Positions 13,083 through 24,083 of a DNA stretch of 24,083 nt are shown here, piece by piece. A program made the position numbers and the translations under genes. Under the pieces are notes generated by a model. That model did not search any database, was not told the DNA's origin, and saw nothing but the letters and a program-made list of their open reading frames with translations. The DNA comes from a virus (lineage: Duplodnaviria > Caudoviricetes). How positions within the stretch are numbered: the stretch's first letter is position 1; each line of letters opens with the position of its first letter. Where the stretch lies: IMG/VR virus record IMGVR_UViG_3300032305_001759, positions 1 through 24,083 of that record, one strand, 5' to 3'.

Positions 13083-13304
13083 ATGCCTGATACTAAAGAA
13101 AAAGTAAAGAAAGTATTGAAAATTTCAGATCGTTGTGATAGATGTGGTGCTCAAGCTTTTGTACTTGCTACTGGAGTTTCAGGGGAATTAATGTTTTGTG
13201 GTCATCATTATCACAAATACGAATATGCAATTACTCAATGGGCTTATAAGATTGTTAATGAATTAGACACTATTAATGAAAAGTCTGCAAGTAGTAATAT
13301 TTAA
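13083..13304 (+). CDS. Small Zn-binding protein of actinobacterial type (DRCDRCGAQA...FCGHH; DUF7455-like)
   Basis: 73 aa; AGGAG SD; CxxC...CxxH; TGGTATACT promoter-like motif at 13021-13029; the only credible plus-strand gene in the late block. Confidence 0.75.
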   Translation: MPDTKEKVKKVLKISDRCDRCGAQAFVLATGVSGELMFCGHHYHKYEYAITQWAYKIVNELDTINEKSASSNI

Positions 13305-18311: not shown

Positions 18312-18597
18312 TTTCCTTAATCCTTGTTTTTTCAATAATTTCATCCCCCTGCCCCCTGCAAATTTTTATATTTTTTCTAATTCACTACGTTCATATTGTA
18401 AAGACGTTTTTAATGCTTGTCAAATCGAGTGCCACAAAACATTGAACTTTGAAATTATTTGTAACACAATTGTAACATAATATCTCACATAATGAGATAT
18501 ATATTCACATCCCCCGATTTTCTGAAATTTTTATATTTGTAGCTAGATCCCATTTTGAAGAAAATCTGAATATTTTGTTAATGTGTATGATGCGTAA

Positions 18598-18985: not shown

Positions 18986-19094
18986 AGATGAACAATAGGT
19001 AAACAATAATTCACAGGTTATACCCAAGTTATGCACAATTCACAGGTTATGCACAGGCTGTGGACAAAGTGTATCCAATAGAACATTTGTTCGA
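18986..19094. promoter_or_regulatory. Cluster of DnaA-like boxes plus LexA-type SOS box
   Basis: TTATACCCA 19018, TTATGCACA 19029 and 19047, TGTGGACAA 19059, TAGAACATTTGTTCGA 19079-19094. Confidence 0.7.
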
Positions 19095-19095
19095 G

Positions 19096-19182
19096 TGGCG
19101 CGATTTGCCCCAAAATTTAATTAAGATAGAGAGAAAATCGCCTTGAATACTTGGCGCGATTTGGTTGAAAATTAAATTAAGA
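19096..19182. repeat. 31-bp imperfect direct repeat TGGCGCGATTTG-N4-AAAATTwAATTAAGA
   Basis: Copies at 19096-19126 and 19152-19182. Confidence 0.8.
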
Positions 19183-19208
19183 CGAATTTAAAAATTGTCT
19201 GAAGCTTT

Positions 19209-19355
19209 TTAGAAATCATCATCATCATCAAAATAATTTTCTATTTCTTGGTCACTCTCGCACATAATGCAATAGTTAATTTCCCAAGCCGTTAATTTAT
19301 CATCACAAGTCAAGCACTTATTCTTGGTGATGTTTTCAAATGCTAGTTCAGTCAT
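19209..19355 (-). CDS. 48-aa Zn-finger microprotein with acidic tail (paralog of 19795-19920)
   Basis: Not in the ORF track. MTELAFENITKNKCLTCDDKLTAWEINYCIMCESDQEIENYFDDDDDF; GAGGGG SD. Confidence 0.8.
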   Translation of the reverse strand: MTELAFENITKNKCLTCDDKLTAWEINYCIMCESDQEIENYFDDDDDF

Positions 19356-19361
19356 TTTTTA

Positions 19362-19550
19362 TTACCCCTCAATCATTTCGCAAATCAATGCACCGATAGC
19401 AGATACTAAACCGATAACGGCGGTTACTATCATCACATTGACAGACATAAAATCAAATCCGATAACTAGTAGTTGTAATTCTAGTAGTAGTGCAGGTAAT
19501 GACATAACTGCAATAGTAACTAGTGGAGCGATTAGATTGTAAAGAAACAT
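19362..19550 (-). CDS. Small two-TM membrane protein
   Basis: 62 aa, hydrophobic; AGAAAGAG SD; downstream of a promoter and RNA element. Confidence 0.7.
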   Translation of the reverse strand: MFLYNLIAPLVTIAVMSLPALLLELQLLVIGFDFMSVNVMIVTAVIGLVSAIGALICEMIEG

Positions 19551-19569
19551 TTTTTCTCTTTCTGTTAGT

Positions 19570-19631
19570 GTTGAGATTTATTTGCTAGGCTCATTCGGTT
19601 TCCCGACTTATTTGCTAGGCTCACTCTCAAC
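19570..19631 (-). ncRNA. Candidate structured leader RNA, copy 1
   Basis: RNA GUUGAGA-G-UGAGCCUAGCAAAUAA-G-UCGG-GAAA-CCGA-A-UGAGCCUAGCAAAUAA-A-UCUCAAC between promoter and SD. Confidence 0.7.
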
Positions 19632-19646
19632 CTTTCTTATAGTCTT

Positions 19647-19668
19647 AACTTAGCATACCTGACTGACA
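19647..19668 (-). promoter_or_regulatory. TGTCAG-N10-TAnnnT promoter (leftward)
   Basis: TGTCAG-TCAGGTATGC-TAAGTT. Confidence 0.75.
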
Positions 19669-19680
19669 ATTTCTACCTGA

Positions 19681-19790
19681 ATCTCACTATTTGAGATGAA
19701 CAGTAGGTGAACAATAAATCACAGGTTATCCACAGCTGCCCGCGCCCACGCTGTCGGGCGTGTCGTTATGTGTGATCAAAAATGCCCTGG
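19681..19790. promoter_or_regulatory. Regulatory island 1 (GCCCGCGCCC core)
   Basis: ATCTCA-N5-TGAGAT 19681, 11-bp-period TGAAC repeat about 19697-19712, TTATCCACA 19726, GCCCGCGCCC 19738, GGGCGTGTCG 19756. Confidence 0.7.
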
Positions 19791-19794
19791 ACTT

Positions 19795-19920
19795 TTATTC
19801 GTATGTAGAATAATCGTCAGGCTCACACATAATGCAGTAGGTATTTTCCCACGATGTTAATTTGTCATCACACTCAATACATTTTGTATTGGTGATGTTT
19901 TCAATTAGTAATTCATTCAT
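19795..19920 (-). CDS. 41-aa Zn-finger microprotein
   Basis: Not in the ORF track. MNELLIENITNTKCIECDDKLTSWENTYCIMCEPDDYSTYE; GAAAGGA SD. Confidence 0.8.
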   Translation of the reverse strand: MNELLIENITNTKCIECDDKLTSWENTYCIMCEPDDYSTYE

Positions 19921-19939
19921 AATGAATCCTTTCGTTAGT

Positions 19940-19997
19940 GCTAAGACTTATTTGCTAGGCTCATCCGTTAGGCTTATTTGCTAGGCTCATTCTTAAC
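19940..19997 (-). ncRNA. Candidate structured leader RNA, copy 2
   Basis: RNA GUUAAGA-A-UGAGCCUAGCAAAUAA-G-CC-UAAC-GG-A-UGAGCCUAGCAAAUAA-G-UCUUAGC; stems covary with copy 1. Confidence 0.7.
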
Positions 19998-20008
19998 TAT
20001 TTAATTTT

Positions 20009-20030
20009 AATCTATCAGATAGGTCTGACA
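20009..20030 (-). promoter_or_regulatory. TGTCAG-N10-TAnnnT promoter (leftward)
   Basis: TGTCAG-ACCTATCTGA-TAGATT. Confidence 0.75.
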
Positions 20031-20034
20031 GTTT

Positions 20035-20169
20035 TTATCCGTAGTATTCATTGAATTCATCTACGGTCATTTTACCTTTGTAGGTATCACAGCAGAACAT
20101 CTGGTCAGCAGACATTTCACTTTCACAGAAGCAACAGATGTATTCTGTTTCATTTAGTAAGTTAAACAT
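20035..20169 (-). CDS. 44-aa Cys-rich microprotein
   Basis: Not in the ORF track. MFNLLNETEYICCFCESEMSADQMFCCDTYKGKMTVDEFNEYYG; AGAAAGGAG SD. Confidence 0.75.
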   Translation of the reverse strand: MFNLLNETEYICCFCESEMSADQMFCCDTYKGKMTVDEFNEYYG

Positions 20170-20199
20170 TCTTAACTCCTTTCTTTATCTTATGTCTTT

Positions 20200-20221
20200 A
20201 GACTAGCAGAGGGGTCTGACA
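20200..20221 (-). promoter_or_regulatory. TGTCAG-N10-TAnnnT promoter (leftward member of divergent pair)
   Basis: TGTCAG-ACCCCTCTGC-TAGTCT. Confidence 0.8.
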
Positions 20222-20237
20222 TTTTTACCCCTTTTTC

Positions 20238-20378
20238 GGGCGTGTCGCAAAACTATTTTTGTGATGTACATCATAGAACATCTGTTCGAATGCCCGCGCC
20301 CTTGTGGATAACCTGTGTATAAGATGGCTATAAAATGCCCCTGAAAAGTTTACCAAATGTTTACCTAAACACACCCCC
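20238..20378. promoter_or_regulatory. Regulatory island 2 between divergent promoters
   Basis: GGGCGTGTCG 20238, TGTGA-N6-TCATA 20260, TAGAACATCTGTTCGA 20274, GCCCGCGCCC 20292, TGTGGATAA 20303, TGTGTATAA 20314, GTTTAC-N5-GTTTAC 20348-20364. Confidence 0.75.
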
Positions 20379-20392
20379 TAAATGGCATAAAT

Positions 20393-20414
20393 TGTCAGAC
20401 CCCTAGTGTATGAT
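20393..20414 (+). promoter_or_regulatory. TGTCAG-N10-TAnnnT promoter (rightward)
   Basis: TGTCAG-ACCCCTAGTG-TATGAT. Confidence 0.8.
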
Positions 20415-20445
20415 GAAATCATAAGACAAAAAGAAAGAGGTCAAA

Positions 20446-20631
20446 ATGACTTACTTAGTAACAAACAAGAGAGACAACATCTCTAACGAATACATCTCTA
20501 TTCACTCTGCCTTGCAAATGGTTGCAAGTTGCTATGACGGTGCAGGTATCACTTGCGAAATCGTAGACACCCAAACGGGTGAACAGGTAGAAATCTATCG
20601 AGATACCCTAAGGGGCTGGCGTGTCGCTTAG
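20446..20631 (+). CDS. Hypothetical early protein
   Basis: 61 aa; AGAAAGAGG SD after promoter. Confidence 0.7.
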   Translation: MTYLVTNKRDNISNEYISIHSALQMVASCYDGAGITCEIVDTQTGEQVEIYRDTLRGWRVA

Positions 20632-20637
20632 CGAAAC

Positions 20638-20659
20638 TGTCAGACCTCTATGCTAAAGT
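20638..20659 (+). promoter_or_regulatory. TGTCAG-N10-TAnnnT promoter
   Basis: TGTCAG-ACCTCTATGC-TAAAGT. Confidence 0.8.
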
Positions 20660-20688
20660 AAAACTAACAAACAAAGAAAGGGCATCAA

Positions 20689-20856
20689 ATGTCACTAGCA
20701 CTAATCTCAATCACAATCCTACTATCTAGCCTATTTGCTGGATTCCTTGCTTATGCTGTAATAACTATCAGCGAACTAAAGAAAAATAAAAAGATGTGGG
20801 AACAAGCCTACACACAATTAGCCATTGAATTTATGGTACTAAAGGCAGGTAAGTAA
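20689..20856 (+). CDS. 55-aa membrane protein
   Basis: MSLALISITILLSSLFAGFLAYAVITISELKKNKKMWEQ...; AGAAAGGG SD. Confidence 0.7.
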   Translation: MSLALISITILLSSLFAGFLAYAVITISELKKNKKMWEQAYTQLAIEFMVLKAGK

Positions 20857-21023
20857 TGATGACACGCAAAGACTACATCAAAATTGCAGAAATTCTAAAT
20901 GCTTATCACTTAGACATTGACTCACAAGTATTTGAGGATTTGCTTTCAGACTTTCAAACATTTTTCAAAAGAGATAATTCAAACTTCGACTTAACACGAT
21001 TCAGAGATGCGGTAATTAAATAA
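20856..21023 (+). CDS. 55-aa phage protein (MTRKDY...DNxNFDxxRF type)
   Basis: MMTRKDYIKIAEILNAYHLDIDSQVFEDLLSDFQTFFKRDNSNFDLTRFRDAVIK; TAATG-coupled. Confidence 0.75.
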   Translation: MMTRKDYIKIAEILNAYHLDIDSQVFEDLLSDFQTFFKRDNSNFDLTRFRDAVIK

Positions 21024-21175
21024 TGAAAATACAACACAACAAAATTGACGGAACTTTCGTAATTGGAATTTCTTTCTCTAACTACTACAACAAAAAAACT
21101 TCAACCAAAAATACTTCCCTGATTTTTGATTTAGGTTCTCGCTCACTTGCATTTACATTTAGAGGTGACTACTAA
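21023..21175 (+). CDS. 50-aa hypothetical protein
   Basis: MKIQHNKIDGTFVIGISFSNYY...; TAATG-coupled at both ends. Confidence 0.65.
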   Translation: MKIQHNKIDGTFVIGISFSNYYNKKTSTKNTSLIFDLGSRSLAFTFRGDY

Positions 21176-21255
21176 TGAATAGTTTTTATTCTTGGGTTTT
21201 AATTTTATCCCTTGCAGGTTTTGTTTATTTGCTTGTAGATAATTTTACAGACTAA
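21175..21255 (+). CDS. 26-aa hydrophobic peptide
   Basis: MNSFYSWVLILSLAGFVYLLVDNFTD; GAGGTG SD, TAATG overlap. Confidence 0.55.
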   Translation: MNSFYSWVLILSLAGFVYLLVDNFTD

Positions 21256-21261
21256 CAAAAC

Positions 21262-21352
21262 GAGCTGATCGAACGCCTGTTCGAAAAGCCCGCGCCCCTG
21301 TGGATAACTATTGTTATGATAGTTAAGAAATAGCCTGGAATATTCTGGAAAA
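21262..21352. promoter_or_regulatory. Regulatory island 3 with perfect SOS box
   Basis: TCGAACGCCTGTTCGA 21269-21284, GCCCGCGCCC 21288, TGTGGATAA 21299. Confidence 0.75.
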
Positions 21353-21385
21353 TTTTTATAAATTATTTCTAATAAACCTATTTTT

Positions 21386-21407
21386 TGTCAGACCCTTGTG
21401 CTAGTAT
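21386..21407 (+). promoter_or_regulatory. TGTCAG-N10-TAnnnT promoter
   Basis: TGTCAG-ACCCTTGTGC-TAGTAT. Confidence 0.8.
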
Positions 21408-21437
21408 CAGAGATACCTACTAAGAAATGAGAACGAC

Positions 21438-21974
21438 ATGAGCTACGAAAACACCTACCGCCAAATTGTTGCACAGGCTAAGCCGTCACAGATTGAACAA
21501 GCCACACAATGGTATGCAGATGCTGAGGCAGTTGCTCATGAAGTAGTGTCTATCTATAAGTCAAGAGGCATGGATGTATCTTTAGAACAGGCTGCTTCGA
21601 TAATTTCAGCGTTCTCACCTCGTCAGCGTTGGTCAACCAATGTTCGTCAGGCACTTAGATTTGCTCATGGCGATGAGGAAATGCGTTGCCTACCTAACAA
21701 TCTTAAAATGGCTAAGAGTGCTTTAGAAAATGGTTTCAATGCACTTAATGGAAAGAAAACAAATTCATTTGCTCGTAACATTGCAGGTGATCAAAATGCA
21801 ATCACGATTGACATTTGGATGATGAGGTCAGCAGGTATTCCAAAAGATAGTCCTAGTAAAAAAGACTACACACAATTATCTGAGGCGATTGAAAAAATTG
21901 CAATGGAAACTGCAATGACACCTCGTACCGTTCAAGCATTGGTATGGATTGTGTATAGGGGTAGTGCTGCATGA
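21438..21974 (+). CDS. Phage protein of DUF7178-like family (possible helix-hairpin-helix DNA-glycosylase-related fold)
   Basis: WY...SP.Q.W..N...KT.SF..NI.G...TID.WM.R...Y..L...I......P..VQA..W motif pattern. Confidence 0.55.
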   Translation: MSYENTYRQIVAQAKPSQIEQATQWYADAEAVAHEVVSIYKSRGMDVSLEQAASIISAFSPRQRWSTNVRQALRFAHGDEEMRCLPNNLKMAKSALENGFNALNGKKTNSFARNIAGDQNAITIDIWMMRSAGIPKDSPSKKDYTQLSEAIEKIAMETAMTPRTVQALVWIVYRGSAA

Positions 21975-22068
21975 AAAAGCCCGCGCCCCGTTTTCCACAG
22001 GCTGTTAAGAAGTTGTGGATAAGTCCCTTGAAAAGTTTACCAAATGTTTACTTTAGACACGCCCTGAA
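21975..22068. promoter_or_regulatory. Regulatory island 4
   Basis: GCCCGCGCCC 21979, TTTTCCACA 21991, TGTGGATAA 22014, TGAAAAGTTTACCAAATGTTTAC 22029-22051 (identical to 20342-20364), GACACGCCC 22056. Confidence 0.75.
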
Positions 22069-22078
22069 ATACTAAAAT

Positions 22079-22100
22079 TGTCAGACCCCTATGGTAAAGT
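22079..22100 (+). promoter_or_regulatory. TGTCAG-N10-TAnnnT promoter
   Basis: TGTCAG-ACCCCTATGG-TAAAGT. Confidence 0.8.
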
Positions 22101-22127
22101 GAAACCATAATGAAAGGAAGTACCAAA

Positions 22128-22280
22128 ATGAATGGTAACTCAAAAGTCGTAATTCTACGCAAGGCTATGTCTGCCCTTGAACTTGCAGATAGTCACGCTA
22201 AGCACGGTGACACCCGTACAGAAAAAATCTGGCGTGATGAATACACACGCTTAATGAATCGTTACTTAGGAGTGAAATAA
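22128..22280 (+). CDS. 50-aa hypothetical protein
   Basis: MNGNSKVVILRKAMSALELADSHAKHGDTRTEKIWRDEYTRLMNRYLGVK; GAAAGGA SD. Confidence 0.7.
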   Translation: MNGNSKVVILRKAMSALELADSHAKHGDTRTEKIWRDEYTRLMNRYLGVK

Positions 22281-22471
22281 TGAGAGTCTATGAAATTGCT
22301 AAGGAACTTAGTATTCCTTCAAAAGATGTCAGAATGTATTTAGAATACATTGGGCAACCCGTAAAGTCTGCATCGTCAAGCGTTGAACCAATGTTTGCTG
22401 AAATAGTTATCAAAAGAATAAACAAGACCTATGAGGAATTTGTGCCTTGTTGGTCATTCCCACCATTCTAA
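22280..22471 (+). CDS. Stand-alone translation initiation factor IF2 N-terminal (IF2_N) domain protein
   Basis: MRVYEIAKELSIPSKDV...L..IG..VKSASSSVE matches the actinobacterial IF2 N-terminus pattern RVxELAKExGxxSKxV...L...GEFVxSASSTxE. Confidence 0.8.
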   Translation: MRVYEIAKELSIPSKDVRMYLEYIGQPVKSASSSVEPMFAEIVIKRINKTYEEFVPCWSFPPF

Positions 22472-22473
22472 AA

Positions 22474-22495
22474 TGTCACACCTCTATGCTAGAAT
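22474..22495 (+). promoter_or_regulatory. TGTCAC-N10-TAnnnT promoter (variant)
   Basis: TGTCAC-ACCTCTATGC-TAGAAT. Confidence 0.7.
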
Positions 22496-22527
22496 AAATA
22501 CCCTACCTACAAGAAATGAGAAATAAA

Positions 22528-22812
22528 ATGGGACTAAACTTCGCAACTGAATTATCCACTATGGATACAATGCCAATGGAGCAACAGATTAACTTGCACC
22601 TACAATACAATTTCTATCCACCCGTTCCATCGTCAATGGTACAGCCTTGCATAGATGCTATCAACGCAATTTGGAATGAGGACTACTTTGCAGAAATAGA
22701 ATTGCCTCAAGGCGTTCTATGGCGTGGTAGTAACTATGCACCTGCTCAAGCAATTGCAGACAATCATAGATTAGATGCTTGGCTAATGGTAGATGACTGG
22801 GAGGACGAATGA
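22528..22812 (+). CDS. Hypothetical phage protein (HLQYNFYPPVP motif)
   Basis: Track ORF 22516-22812; start moved to 22528 because the 22516 ATG lies inside the recurrent AGAAATGAGA leader motif. Confidence 0.75.
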   Translation: MGLNFATELSTMDTMPMEQQINLHLQYNFYPPVPSSMVQPCIDAINAIWNEDYFAEIELPQGVLWRGSNYAPAQAIADNHRLDAWLMVDDWEDE

Positions 22813-22940
22813 AATTTATAGCAAGCCCTGAGCAACTTAGGGCACGTCTTGAGTTGCGTAGAAGTAACGCCTCTGCTAAACACGTTAATAAAAAAAAGTA
22901 TTCCAGAAAACCAAAACACAAAAAGGAATTGTTTGACTAA
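22809..22940 (+). CDS. 43-aa highly basic peptide with ArfA-like tail
   Basis: MKFIASPEQLRARLELRRSNASAKHVNKKKYSRKPKHKKELFD; GGAGG SD; ATGA overlap. Confidence 0.7.
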   Translation: MKFIASPEQLRARLELRRSNASAKHVNKKKYSRKPKHKKELFD

Positions 22941-23071
22941 TGAAATTTATCTTTGCACTATTTGTAATTGCACTTCTTGTATTGCCTGTCATTGGTTTTG
23001 TTGATGGACTTGGTTATAAAAAAAATAATAATGAATTTTTAGATACTGCAAGATGGATAGATGGGAAGTAG
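22940..23071 (+). CDS. 43-aa membrane protein
   Basis: MKFIFALFVIALLVLPVIGFVDGLGYKKNNNEFLDTARWIDGK; TAATG-coupled. Confidence 0.6.
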   Translation: MKFIFALFVIALLVLPVIGFVDGLGYKKNNNEFLDTARWIDGK

Positions 23072-23072
23072 G

Positions 23073-23148
23073 CAGCTGAAAAAGCCCGCGCCCCCTGTGG
23101 ATAACTTTATTTAAGAAGTTAAGAAAAGATCCTGGACCCCCTGGAAAA
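23073..23148. promoter_or_regulatory. Regulatory island 5
   Basis: CAGCTG 23073, GCCCGCGCCC 23084, TGTGGATAA 23096, GATCCTGG and CCTGG 23128-23144. Confidence 0.75.
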
Positions 23149-23150
23149 AT

Positions 23151-23172
23151 TGTCAGACCCTTATGCTATGAT
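23151..23172 (+). promoter_or_regulatory. TGTCAG-N10-TAnnnT promoter
   Basis: TGTCAG-ACCCTTATGC-TATGAT. Confidence 0.8.
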
Positions 23173-23203
23173 GAAATCATACCTACTAAAGAAATGAGAT
23201 GTT

Positions 23204-23446
23204 ATGTTTACACTTAATAACATTCGTAAGAATGAAGAATTAAATTACTTAGTTTCTTCCCTGCCTTGTCCAAATTGTGATAGCACTCTATCTGTTGAAA
23301 TTACCCCTGACAAATTGTGGGCTTACAATCAAGGTGGCTATGCCCAAGATGTATTGTCTGCCTACGATGAGGGTGTTCGTGAGCGTTTCATTACTGGAAT
23401 GTGTGAAATTTGTTGGGCTCTAATGTTTGATTTTGATGATGAATAA
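23204..23446 (+). CDS. Zn-ribbon protein
   Basis: 80 aa; CPNC...Q.V......RE.FITG.C..CW..MF. Confidence 0.75.
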   Translation: MFTLNNIRKNEELNYLVSSLPCPNCDSTLSVEITPDKLWAYNQGGYAQDVLSAYDEGVRERFITGMCEICWALMFDFDDE

Positions 23447-23448
23447 AA

Positions 23449-23470
23449 TGTCAGACCCTTGTGATAAGAT
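23449..23470 (+). promoter_or_regulatory. TGTCAG-N10-TAnnnT promoter
   Basis: TGTCAG-ACCCTTGTGA-TAAGAT. Confidence 0.8.
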
Positions 23471-23498
23471 AAAACTACCTACTAAGAAATGAGATAAA

Positions 23499-23621
23499 AT
23501 GTCAGATACAGATTTGATTAAAGATTTATTCGAGGGTGTCATAGATGACAATGCCCTTGCAAAATTGTCTAAAGAAGAATTAGATGCAATTAACAAAATG
23601 CTAACGGAAGCAGGTTACTAA
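23499..23621 (+). CDS. 40-aa acidic protein
   Basis: MSDTDLIKDLFEGVIDDNALAKLSKEELDAINKMLTEAGY after the conserved leader motif. Confidence 0.7.
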   Translation: MSDTDLIKDLFEGVIDDNALAKLSKEELDAINKMLTEAGY

Positions 23622-23622
23622 A

Positions 23623-23964
23623 ATGGGTGCAAGAATTAATTTCGTATTTGATGACGGAACAGATAGTCTAGTTAATCTTTATTCACATTGGGGCGAGTCT
23701 AATTGGAAAGATGATTTAGTACACGCATTGGTACACGCACAACCACGAAAAGGTGATACCTCATACTTTACCCGTATGGTTATCTCACACCTAATGAAAG
23801 ACCAGATGTTAGATGAAACTGGTTTTGGTATCTATGCAATTAGCCGTTCAGAGATTGGTAACCAATTATTTGACAAGACAGTTGTATTAGATTTAGTAAA
23901 CAACCTACTTACTGATTTAGATAATGATTATTCGGTTGAATTGTATGGAGAGGTGTTTGCATAA
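23623..23964 (+). CDS. Hypothetical phage protein (MGAR...LYSHWG type)
   Basis: 113 aa; LYSHWG...A.PR.GD.SY.TR...ETGFGI motif. Confidence 0.75.
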   Translation: MGARINFVFDDGTDSLVNLYSHWGESNWKDDLVHALVHAQPRKGDTSYFTRMVISHLMKDQMLDETGFGIYAISRSEIGNQLFDKTVVLDLVNNLLTDLDNDYSVELYGEVFA

Positions 23965-24083
23965 TGAAAAGTTATTTTGCAATAGACGGTAGTTATGGTG
24001 ATGCAAATGAAATTGCAATCATTGACACAGATAAGTTTACTGAAGATGATTGGCAAGCCATTGAAGAAGAATTAGATTATTAC
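23964..24083 (+). CDS. Hypothetical protein (partial, runs off window)
   Basis: TAATG-coupled MKSYFAIDGSYGDANEIAIIDTDKFTEDDWQAIEEELDY...; GGAGAGG SD. Confidence 0.65.
   Translation, partial: MKSYFAIDGSYGDANEIAIIDTDKFTEDDWQAIEEELDYY

Follow-up and report, generated by a model that had tools for sequence, protein, structure and literature searches.

Ten predicted promoters of a freshwater phage small-gene block match the PafBC-type DNA-damage promoters of actinobacteria

The question raised by the locus considered here is which transcription machinery, that of the host or one supplied by the phage, reads a set of ten closely similar promoter-like sites placed before small genes in a tailed-virus (Caudoviricetes) sequence. 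The stretch that was analysed, hereafter the window, comprises 24,083 nucleotides (nt), positions 1 to 24,083 of the IMG/VR virus record IMGVR_UViG_3300032305_001759; this 24-kb record represents an incomplete genome. The left 18 kb of the window carry tail-fibre and other structural-type genes, and the ten sites follow to the right of these. An initial annotation had proposed that the sites have the architecture of actinobacterial PafBC (RecA-NDp) DNA-damage promoters and drive the early genes of the phage, "early" being a label that we infer from position alone. The reading that we favour, and consider reasonably probable from sequence comparison, is that the host SigA polymerase, together with host PafBC activated by single-stranded DNA (ssDNA), reads these predicted promoters. 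Because they match the sequence and spacing of the PafBC promoter at actinobacterial recA genes, the phage likely switches the block on through the DNA-damage sensor of its host.

The pattern TGTCA(G/C)-N10-TAnnnT occurs ten times in the window against a mean of 0.77 in shuffled sequence (maximum 4; none of 100 shuffles reached ten), which bears out the ten intergenic sites, with their positions and strands, that the initial annotation had listed. Nine of them read TGTCAG and one is a TGTCAC variant. All lie inside 19647-23470 and are oriented into an open reading frame (ORF), and the claim that each points into a small gene or operon, with divergence from about 20.3 kb, was likewise confirmed. 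In the remaining 19 kb of the window the looser TGTC-N12-TAnnnT occurs once, within a gene, and a scan of spacer lengths over 19000-24083 returned ten sites for TGTC-N12 and 0-2 for each other spacing from 8 to 19. The consensus of the window sites is longer than first reported, reading AAA-N-TGTCAGACCyyTrTGnTAnnnT followed by a pyrimidine/A at the predicted -1/+1 positions, and includes an extended -10 (TGn before the hexamer) in nine of the ten sites and in 96 of the 106 sites of the pooled set defined below. Leaders from predicted start to ORF measure 21-26 nt at eight sites and 82 and 90 nt at two (the second in-frame ATG being used as the start of two genes), and every gene so faced has a ribosome-binding leader. 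Among the canonical matches (TTGACA-like, 16-18 nt before the -10) none falls at any of the ten sites; no bases are conserved at -40 to -33, and TTG lies near -35 in 9 of the 106 pooled sites. TTGTCA as the -35 of a canonical promoter was rejected, since it stands only 11 nt from the -10 and no conserved -10 follows further downstream.

The element, its spacing and the want of a -35 are those described for PafBC promoters. The published PafBC motif is tGTCgg(N10)tA(N3)T, with the element at -23 to -28, no -35 and a GTC triplet read by PafB residues R46 and R50, and the triplet is present at recA across actinobacteria including S. coelicolor (PMC8635444). For S. venezuelae, an initial search reported in PMC9380542 gave no sign that the M. 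smegmatis motif is conserved. PafBC is activated by ssDNA, and it has been suggested that genome-bound sources of ssDNA need to be local (PMC11804915). All ten window sites share the published element position, the GTC triplet, the N10 spacing and the SigA-type TAnnnT. In the mechanism proposed, PafBC would bind the TGTCAG box at -28 to -23, replacing the -35 contact, and would thereby activate the small-gene block, with R46 and R50 of PafB presumably reading the GTC triplet. The ssDNA might arise when the DNA of the phage itself is processed or replicated, or from ambient damage, and the TnTG extended -10 would probably give some damage-free activity that PafBC boosts; both of these steps are guesses.

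The array is conserved among related phages. The DUF7178 gene of the array retrieved ten IMG/VR loci with 6-20 motif copies around each, and the window plus nine of these loci (L004, a duplicate of L005, being omitted) form the pooled set of 121 sites, 106 of them unique. Whole-record counts in five relatives were 17, 16, 18, 13 and 15, against 3, 3, 0, 0 and 1 in a reversed control. In the window 10/10 sites lie in 19647-23470, and in G001, a complete relative of 101,664 bp (101.7 kb), 14 of 17 copies lie within 1.4-10.1 kb. To avoid circularity, sites were anchored on one half of the motif only: all 73 unique TGTCAGACC contexts have TAnnnT at exactly N10, and 64 of 65 ACCYnTnTGnTAnnnT contexts have TGTCA(G/C) in front of them. 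The long consensus returned 194 loci from IMG/VR, out of an estimated 240 or so stretches, and a spacer one base longer gave none. A BLAST search of one promoter against cultured phages gave chance matches only. The predicted +1 of the pooled sites is A in 88/106, with a pyrimidine-purine step at -1/+1 in 83/106.

That the phage group infects actinobacteria is supported by its WhiB, by the best matches of its FtsZ and by the similarity of its capsid protein. G001 encodes WhiB, FtsZ, SSB, DnaE, a RecA-like protein, a helicase and a primase; WhiB serves as an actinophage marker (PMC6802176, PMC10202952). The FtsZ of G001 finds its best matches mostly in Actinomycetota (up to 61%), and its capsid protein is nearest to Rhodococcus phages and to Streptomyces phages of the Stanwilliamsviridae, members of which share 37-40% identity in the capsid, 41-47% in a helix-turn-helix (HTH) protein and 40-53% in DUF932. 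Public runs containing the region are mostly freshwater metagenomes, and two RNA runs contain small shares of it, as contigs. An integrase was not detected in any of five relatives, which include the complete G001 and the 90%-complete G002, and from this absence the phage would appear to be virulent. The phage FtsZ itself (L015:8429-9364, from G001) has 311 amino acids, shorter than host FtsZ, and at least 120 close relatives are of equal length; it is a possible division inhibitor. A small DUF7455 protein is encoded at 13083-13304 of the window, on the opposite strand amid tail genes, and has counterparts at 43-50% identity in each of the five actinobacterial genomes compared.

Candidate hosts were taken to be 28 rhodopsin-bearing genomes of at most 1.7 Mb from a sample of 401 Actinomycetes genomes, and 22 of the 28 fall in one large order of 0.8-2.2-Mb genomes that would correspond to Nanopelagicales. 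The 28 genomes are probably acI, and acI bacteria are the likely hosts of the phage. In the 27 genomes in which recA was found, TGTC-N12-TAnnnT lies upstream of the gene in every case with a LexA box close by, and other TGTC spacings occur there at most once. An adjacent pair of WYL genes of the pafB-pafC type is present in 26 of the 28; Pfam identified the members of two such pairs as PafB and PafC, and in a comparison with the PDB one acI-like PafB matched known PafB structures, its RMFER helix (R46/R50 of M. smegmatis) being intact. Support for the PafBC reading, in its host form, comes from the published motif, an actinobacterial phage group and candidate hosts that keep both pafB-pafC and the motif at recA; the option of an adaptor encoded by the phage is not supported, as set out below. 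Forty further host motif sites were taken from three candidate-host genomes, and several precede carD, ssb and genes for a DnaQ-type exonuclease, a PD-(D/E)XK nuclease, a LysM protein and DUF6504, which we take to be members of the mycobacterial PafBC regulon. At 11 of the 40 the ORF begins 6-7 nt after the -10, and because such genes are leaderless, transcription of the phage genes would, in keeping with the pyrimidine/A signature, start about 7 nt after the -10. A matrix built from the host sites ranks the ten window sites 1st to 10th, a ranking that is partly circular in that this core pattern had also served to select the host sites. By every sequence test the array would resemble a PafBC regulon. 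In most acI-like genomes (L183-L201) a LexA box at the start site directly overlaps the PafBC-type recA promoter, a layout suggestive of an AND gate.

Several findings weigh against host PafBC as the reader of the array. Phage sites have ACC at -22 to -20 in 91/106 cases against 1/40 host sites, which mostly have TGG there; AAA at -32 to -30 in 82/106 against 1/40; TG at -15/-14 in 96/106 against 12/40; and TnTG in 87/106 against 0/40. The complete phage form of the consensus is rare in the acI-like order, where 5 of 401 genomes have it, and in five hosts the core pattern shows no genome-wide enrichment (20-26 matches against 23-30 in the control). Among 30 other small, non-acI-like Actinomycetota genomes, the recA motif was present in 6 of the 12 that have a PafB match and in 3 of the 18 that have none. 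The phage FtsZ is 55-59% identical to that of acI-like genomes, no better than to other actinobacteria (up to 61%), and comparisons of FtsZ, WhiB and DUF7455 place the host at the level of phylum, none of them finer. A contig of the phage was sought in 401 acI-like genomes and found in none. To these are added two points concerning the phage itself: a 174-amino-acid HTH/extracytoplasmic function (ECF)-like protein is family-wide, and in G001 the replication and other genes, including structural regions, have canonical TTGAC-N16/18-TAnnnT promoters. A proposal that a minor-groove reader would not distinguish TGG from ACC (W-S-S in 29/40 host and 95/106 phage sites) was rejected because the PafB wing binds polymerase and not the minor groove.

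Extended -10 promoters need no -35, and the prevalence of the extended -10 makes PafBC-independent activity possible. Taken to its end, this would make the array a set of factor-independent SigA promoters for which TnTGn-TAnnnT and A-rich flanks suffice, TGTCAG being a minor booster or a relic spread by promoter-cassette recombination. The excess of TG and TnTG in phage over host sites favours such a view, as does the sharing of more sequence than PafBC needs, which copying would give, and a virulent phage, having no integrase, should not wait for damage. However, TGTCA is the least variable part of the sites, the 64 of 65 downstream-anchored contexts retaining TGTCA(G/C) while their neighbours vary; four of the 106 phage sites read TGTC(A/G)GTGG, as host sites do; and the one window site that lacks TG, at 20393, still has TGTCAG. 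We thus consider factor independence an unlikely account of the array.

The canonical promoters of G001 bear on a different alternative: on their account the array block may neither be transcribed first nor make up most of the early programme, as the initial annotation had supposed it might, and a phage activator could be made before it. An activator of this kind, comparable with MotA/AsiA of phage T4, would then read TGTCAGACC, and the block would form a second wave after the canonical promoters. Consistent with this are the ACC and AAA extensions, which are phage-specific, the T4 parallel drawn in PMC8635444, and a choice of candidates in the 174-amino-acid HTH/ECF-like, WhiB, FmdB-like and IF2_N-like proteins; these and many small proteins are candidate regulators of the phage, none of them tied to the motif. 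Such an activator would nevertheless need to have arrived independently at the exact hexamer and spacing of the host, and the 174-amino-acid protein is shared with cultured relatives, e.g., Wakanda, that show no promoters of this class in the regions sampled. No gene derived from the PafB HTH was detected either (best E >0.5): profiles of the PafB and PafC N-terminal HTH domains gave no match below E 0.5 in 5,894 six-frame segments from the window and its relatives, where a PafB model from acI-like loci recovered 11/11 held-out PafB proteins at E <1e-12, a control for PafB only. No WYL domain was found in the five relatives, nor any Pfam sigma r2/r4 domain. The PafBC-like adaptor that the initial annotation had allowed the phage to encode accordingly has no WYL, PafB-HTH or PafC-HTH match in the complete relative G001, and we judge a phage activator of any kind to be quite unlikely, host PafBC remaining the preferred reader.

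The spacers of the array carry further elements (Table 1). Three LexA-type boxes, compared with the consensus tCGAAC-N4-GNNCGa, stand in the spacers 93-168 nt upstream of predicted starts, where none is expected, and none occurs elsewhere in the window; host-type boxes of this kind show that the array has, to judge from its sequence, borrowed host damage-response sites, and they recur in 5 of 10 related loci. The 9-mers that we take, from their consensus, to be DnaA-like boxes number 10 over the whole window against 5.2 expected (4/100 shuffles), a marginal excess; they are often paired with GCCCGCGCCC, are denser in L006-L010, and four perfect ones occur in the Wakanda stretch. The octamer GACACGCC (four copies in the window against 0.08 expected) contains GACAC, the motif of WhiA (PMC10243135); its copies at 20239-20246 and 22056-22063 stand at -53 and -51 of predicted starts, and across loci 6 of 15 promoter-proximal copies stand at -51. 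The GTTTAC direct repeats have the shape of a response-regulator site. The GAGCCTAGCAAAT pair is kept in 6 of 9 relatives, before different genes, and is possibly an operator or RNA element. Since the LexA-, DnaA- and WhiA-type sites lie mostly 50-190 nt upstream and off the promoter cores, simple repression is unlikely.

Such an assembly could also be seen as a decoy, in which the many PafBC, LexA, DnaA and WhiA sites of the replicating phage genome would titrate regulators of the host and dampen the damage response, replication and division. The clustering of LexA-type boxes, GACACGCC and DnaA-like boxes in the same spacers would fit, and pafBC has reportedly been linked to mycobacteriophage resistance by Rafique et al. 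in 2025 (cited in PMC12848934). Against it, all PafBC-type sites point into genes that have ribosome-binding leaders, half of the related loci are without LexA boxes, and the DnaA-like count is marginal over the whole window. PafBC, moreover, binds only with polymerase at a promoter (PMC11804915). We regard a decoy as very improbable.

Table 1. Predicted promoters, spacer elements and genes of the array and its surroundings (window coordinates)
Feature	Position	Strand	Remark
Canonical TTGACA-17-TACAAT promoter	18395..18423	-	Faces tail-fibre genes; sole canonical match in window
PafBC-type promoter	19647..19668	-	Predicted start 19640; 90-nt leader into ORF 19362-19550
PafBC-type promoter	20009..20030	-	Predicted start 20002; 82-nt leader into ORF 19795-19920
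PafBC-type promoter	20200..20221	-	Predicted start 20193; into ORF 20035-20169
PafBC-type promoter	20393..20414	+	Predicted start 20421; into ORF 20446-20631; only window site without TG extended -10
PafBC-type promoter	20638..20659	+	Predicted start 20666; into three-gene run 20689-21175
PafBC-type promoter	21386..21407	+	Predicted start 21414; into DUF7178 gene
PafBC-type promoter	22079..22100	+	Predicted start 22107; into 22128-22280 and IF2_N-like gene 22280-22471
PafBC-type promoter, TGTCAC variant	22474..22495	+	Predicted start 22502; into 22528-22812
PafBC-type promoter	23151..23172	+	Predicted start 23179; into 23204-23446
PafBC-type promoter	23449..23470	+	Predicted start 23477; into 23499-23621 and 23623-23964
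LexA (SOS)-type box GAAC-N4-GTTCGA	19081..19094	+	
LexA-type box	20276..20289	+	Reverse strand shares 14 nt with acI-like recA box; between two divergent promoters, off both cores
Palindromic LexA-type box	21269..21284		About 100 nt upstream of promoter at 21386
Nine DnaA-box-like 9-mers	19029..23104		Five perfect TTATCCACA (19726, 20303, 21299, 22014, 23096); all in array intergenic stretches
Four GACACGCC copies	19757..22063		19757, 20239, 20618, 22056; contain WhiA motif GACAC
Five GCCCGCGC copies	19738..23091	+	19738, 20292, 21288, 21979, 23084; usually beside DnaA-like box
Two GTTTAC-N5-GTTTAC direct repeats	20348-20364, 22035-22051	+	About -72 of promoters at 20393 and 22079
Paired GAGCCTAGCAAAT repeats in two long leaders	19580-19622, 19950-19988	-	26-30 nt apart
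DUF7178 protein (PF23802)	21438..21974	+	178 amino acids; cultured-actinophage relatives sometimes annotated glycosylase
IF2_N-domain protein (PF04760, E 1e-8)	22280..22471	+	63 amino acids; conserved in G001

Among the genes of the block, the IF2_N-domain protein is a possible ribosome or nucleic-acid binder, and two small Cys-rich ORFs (19251-19355 and 19795-19920) are paralogous, with 76% DNA identity over 105 nt. The leader sequence CCTAC(T/A)AAGAAATGAG is common to 21416, 22506, 23182 and 23478, and CCTAC falls within the first 12 nt of 48 of the 121 predicted transcripts of the window and nine loci.

The DUF932 gene of the array has a homologue of 50-53% identity, carried in two copies per record, among BE-type Streptomyces phages, and for this reason the array is the likely counterpart of the long terminal repeat of the cultured phages. 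In six of the Stanwilliamsviridae, 57 TTG-type terminal-repeat promoters were collected, and terminal-repeat promoters of the cultured phages mostly have a TTG -35, 17 nt and TAGACT or TAAGCT. GTC occupies -27 to -25 in 17/57 (Coruscant 6/13, Jay2Jay 5/12, Mildred21 6/9, Karimac 0/5, LukeCage 0/6, Tomas 0/12), a count to be read with the caution that GTC also peaks at -18 (18/57) and that promoters within one phage are not independent. Five further cultured-phage promoters, intergenic or at a gene border, have GTC without TTG at the 17-nt position, some of them with a TTG one base off or a near match to a -35. GTC was absent from the TTG-type promoters in the sampled regions of Wakanda (0/7), Trina (0/12) and Weasels2 (0/7). 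The hybrid (-35 plus GTC) and GTC-only promoters of these cultured phages are a new observation, and the phages are a possible bench system. A fuller scenario, which we offer tentatively as one that may well not hold, treats the ssDNA alarm as the ignition of the phage: processing of the entering end, or replication, would yield ssDNA beside a terminal array, PafBC acting locally would fire all its promoters, the LexA, DnaA and WhiA sites would read or drain host regulators, and the cultured Streptomyces phages would represent an intermediate stage.

WYL proteins are known ssDNA sensors that run host repair and anti-phage genes. If the host PafBC reading is correct, a widespread group of freshwater phages would have turned a host alarm into its own switch, an inversion. 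Infection of these bacteria, which are abundant in lakes, would be tied to the state of their DNA damage, and loss or alteration of pafBC, as a host factor, would confer resistance. No report of PafBC-type promoters in a phage was found in the literature among the matches listed.

Four known systems provide points of comparison. The terminal repeats of the Stanwilliamsviridae are alike in being a homologous small-gene block with one promoter per gene and differ in that most promoters retain a TTG -35, whereas the freshwater group has no -35 consensus in its array. PafBC (RecA-NDp) promoters of M. smegmatis and other actinobacteria, a case of "sigma adaptation", share with the phage sites TGTC(A/G)G at -28 to -23, the ten-base gap, TAnnnT and the want of a -35 (PMC8635444, PMC11804915, PMC8223512). 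As at some host regulon genes, LexA-type boxes lie nearby. The phage array, in contrast with host PafBC promoters, belongs to an apparently virulent phage, serves small and mostly unassigned genes in 10-18 copies over 4-12 kb, and adds the TnTG extended -10, ACC and an upstream A-tract. The middle promoters of T4, where MotA and AsiA bring about "sigma appropriation", likewise set an activator box in place of the -35 beside a housekeeping -10; the T4 adaptor is encoded by the phage, whereas none was found in the freshwater phage, whose box is that of the host (PMC8635444). The temperate phage GIL01 is also wired to the DNA-damage regulator of its host, its P1 promoter carrying host LexA boxes; there a repressor holds lysogeny, whereas in the freshwater phage, which lacks an integrase, an activator would drive many promoters (PMC4551915).

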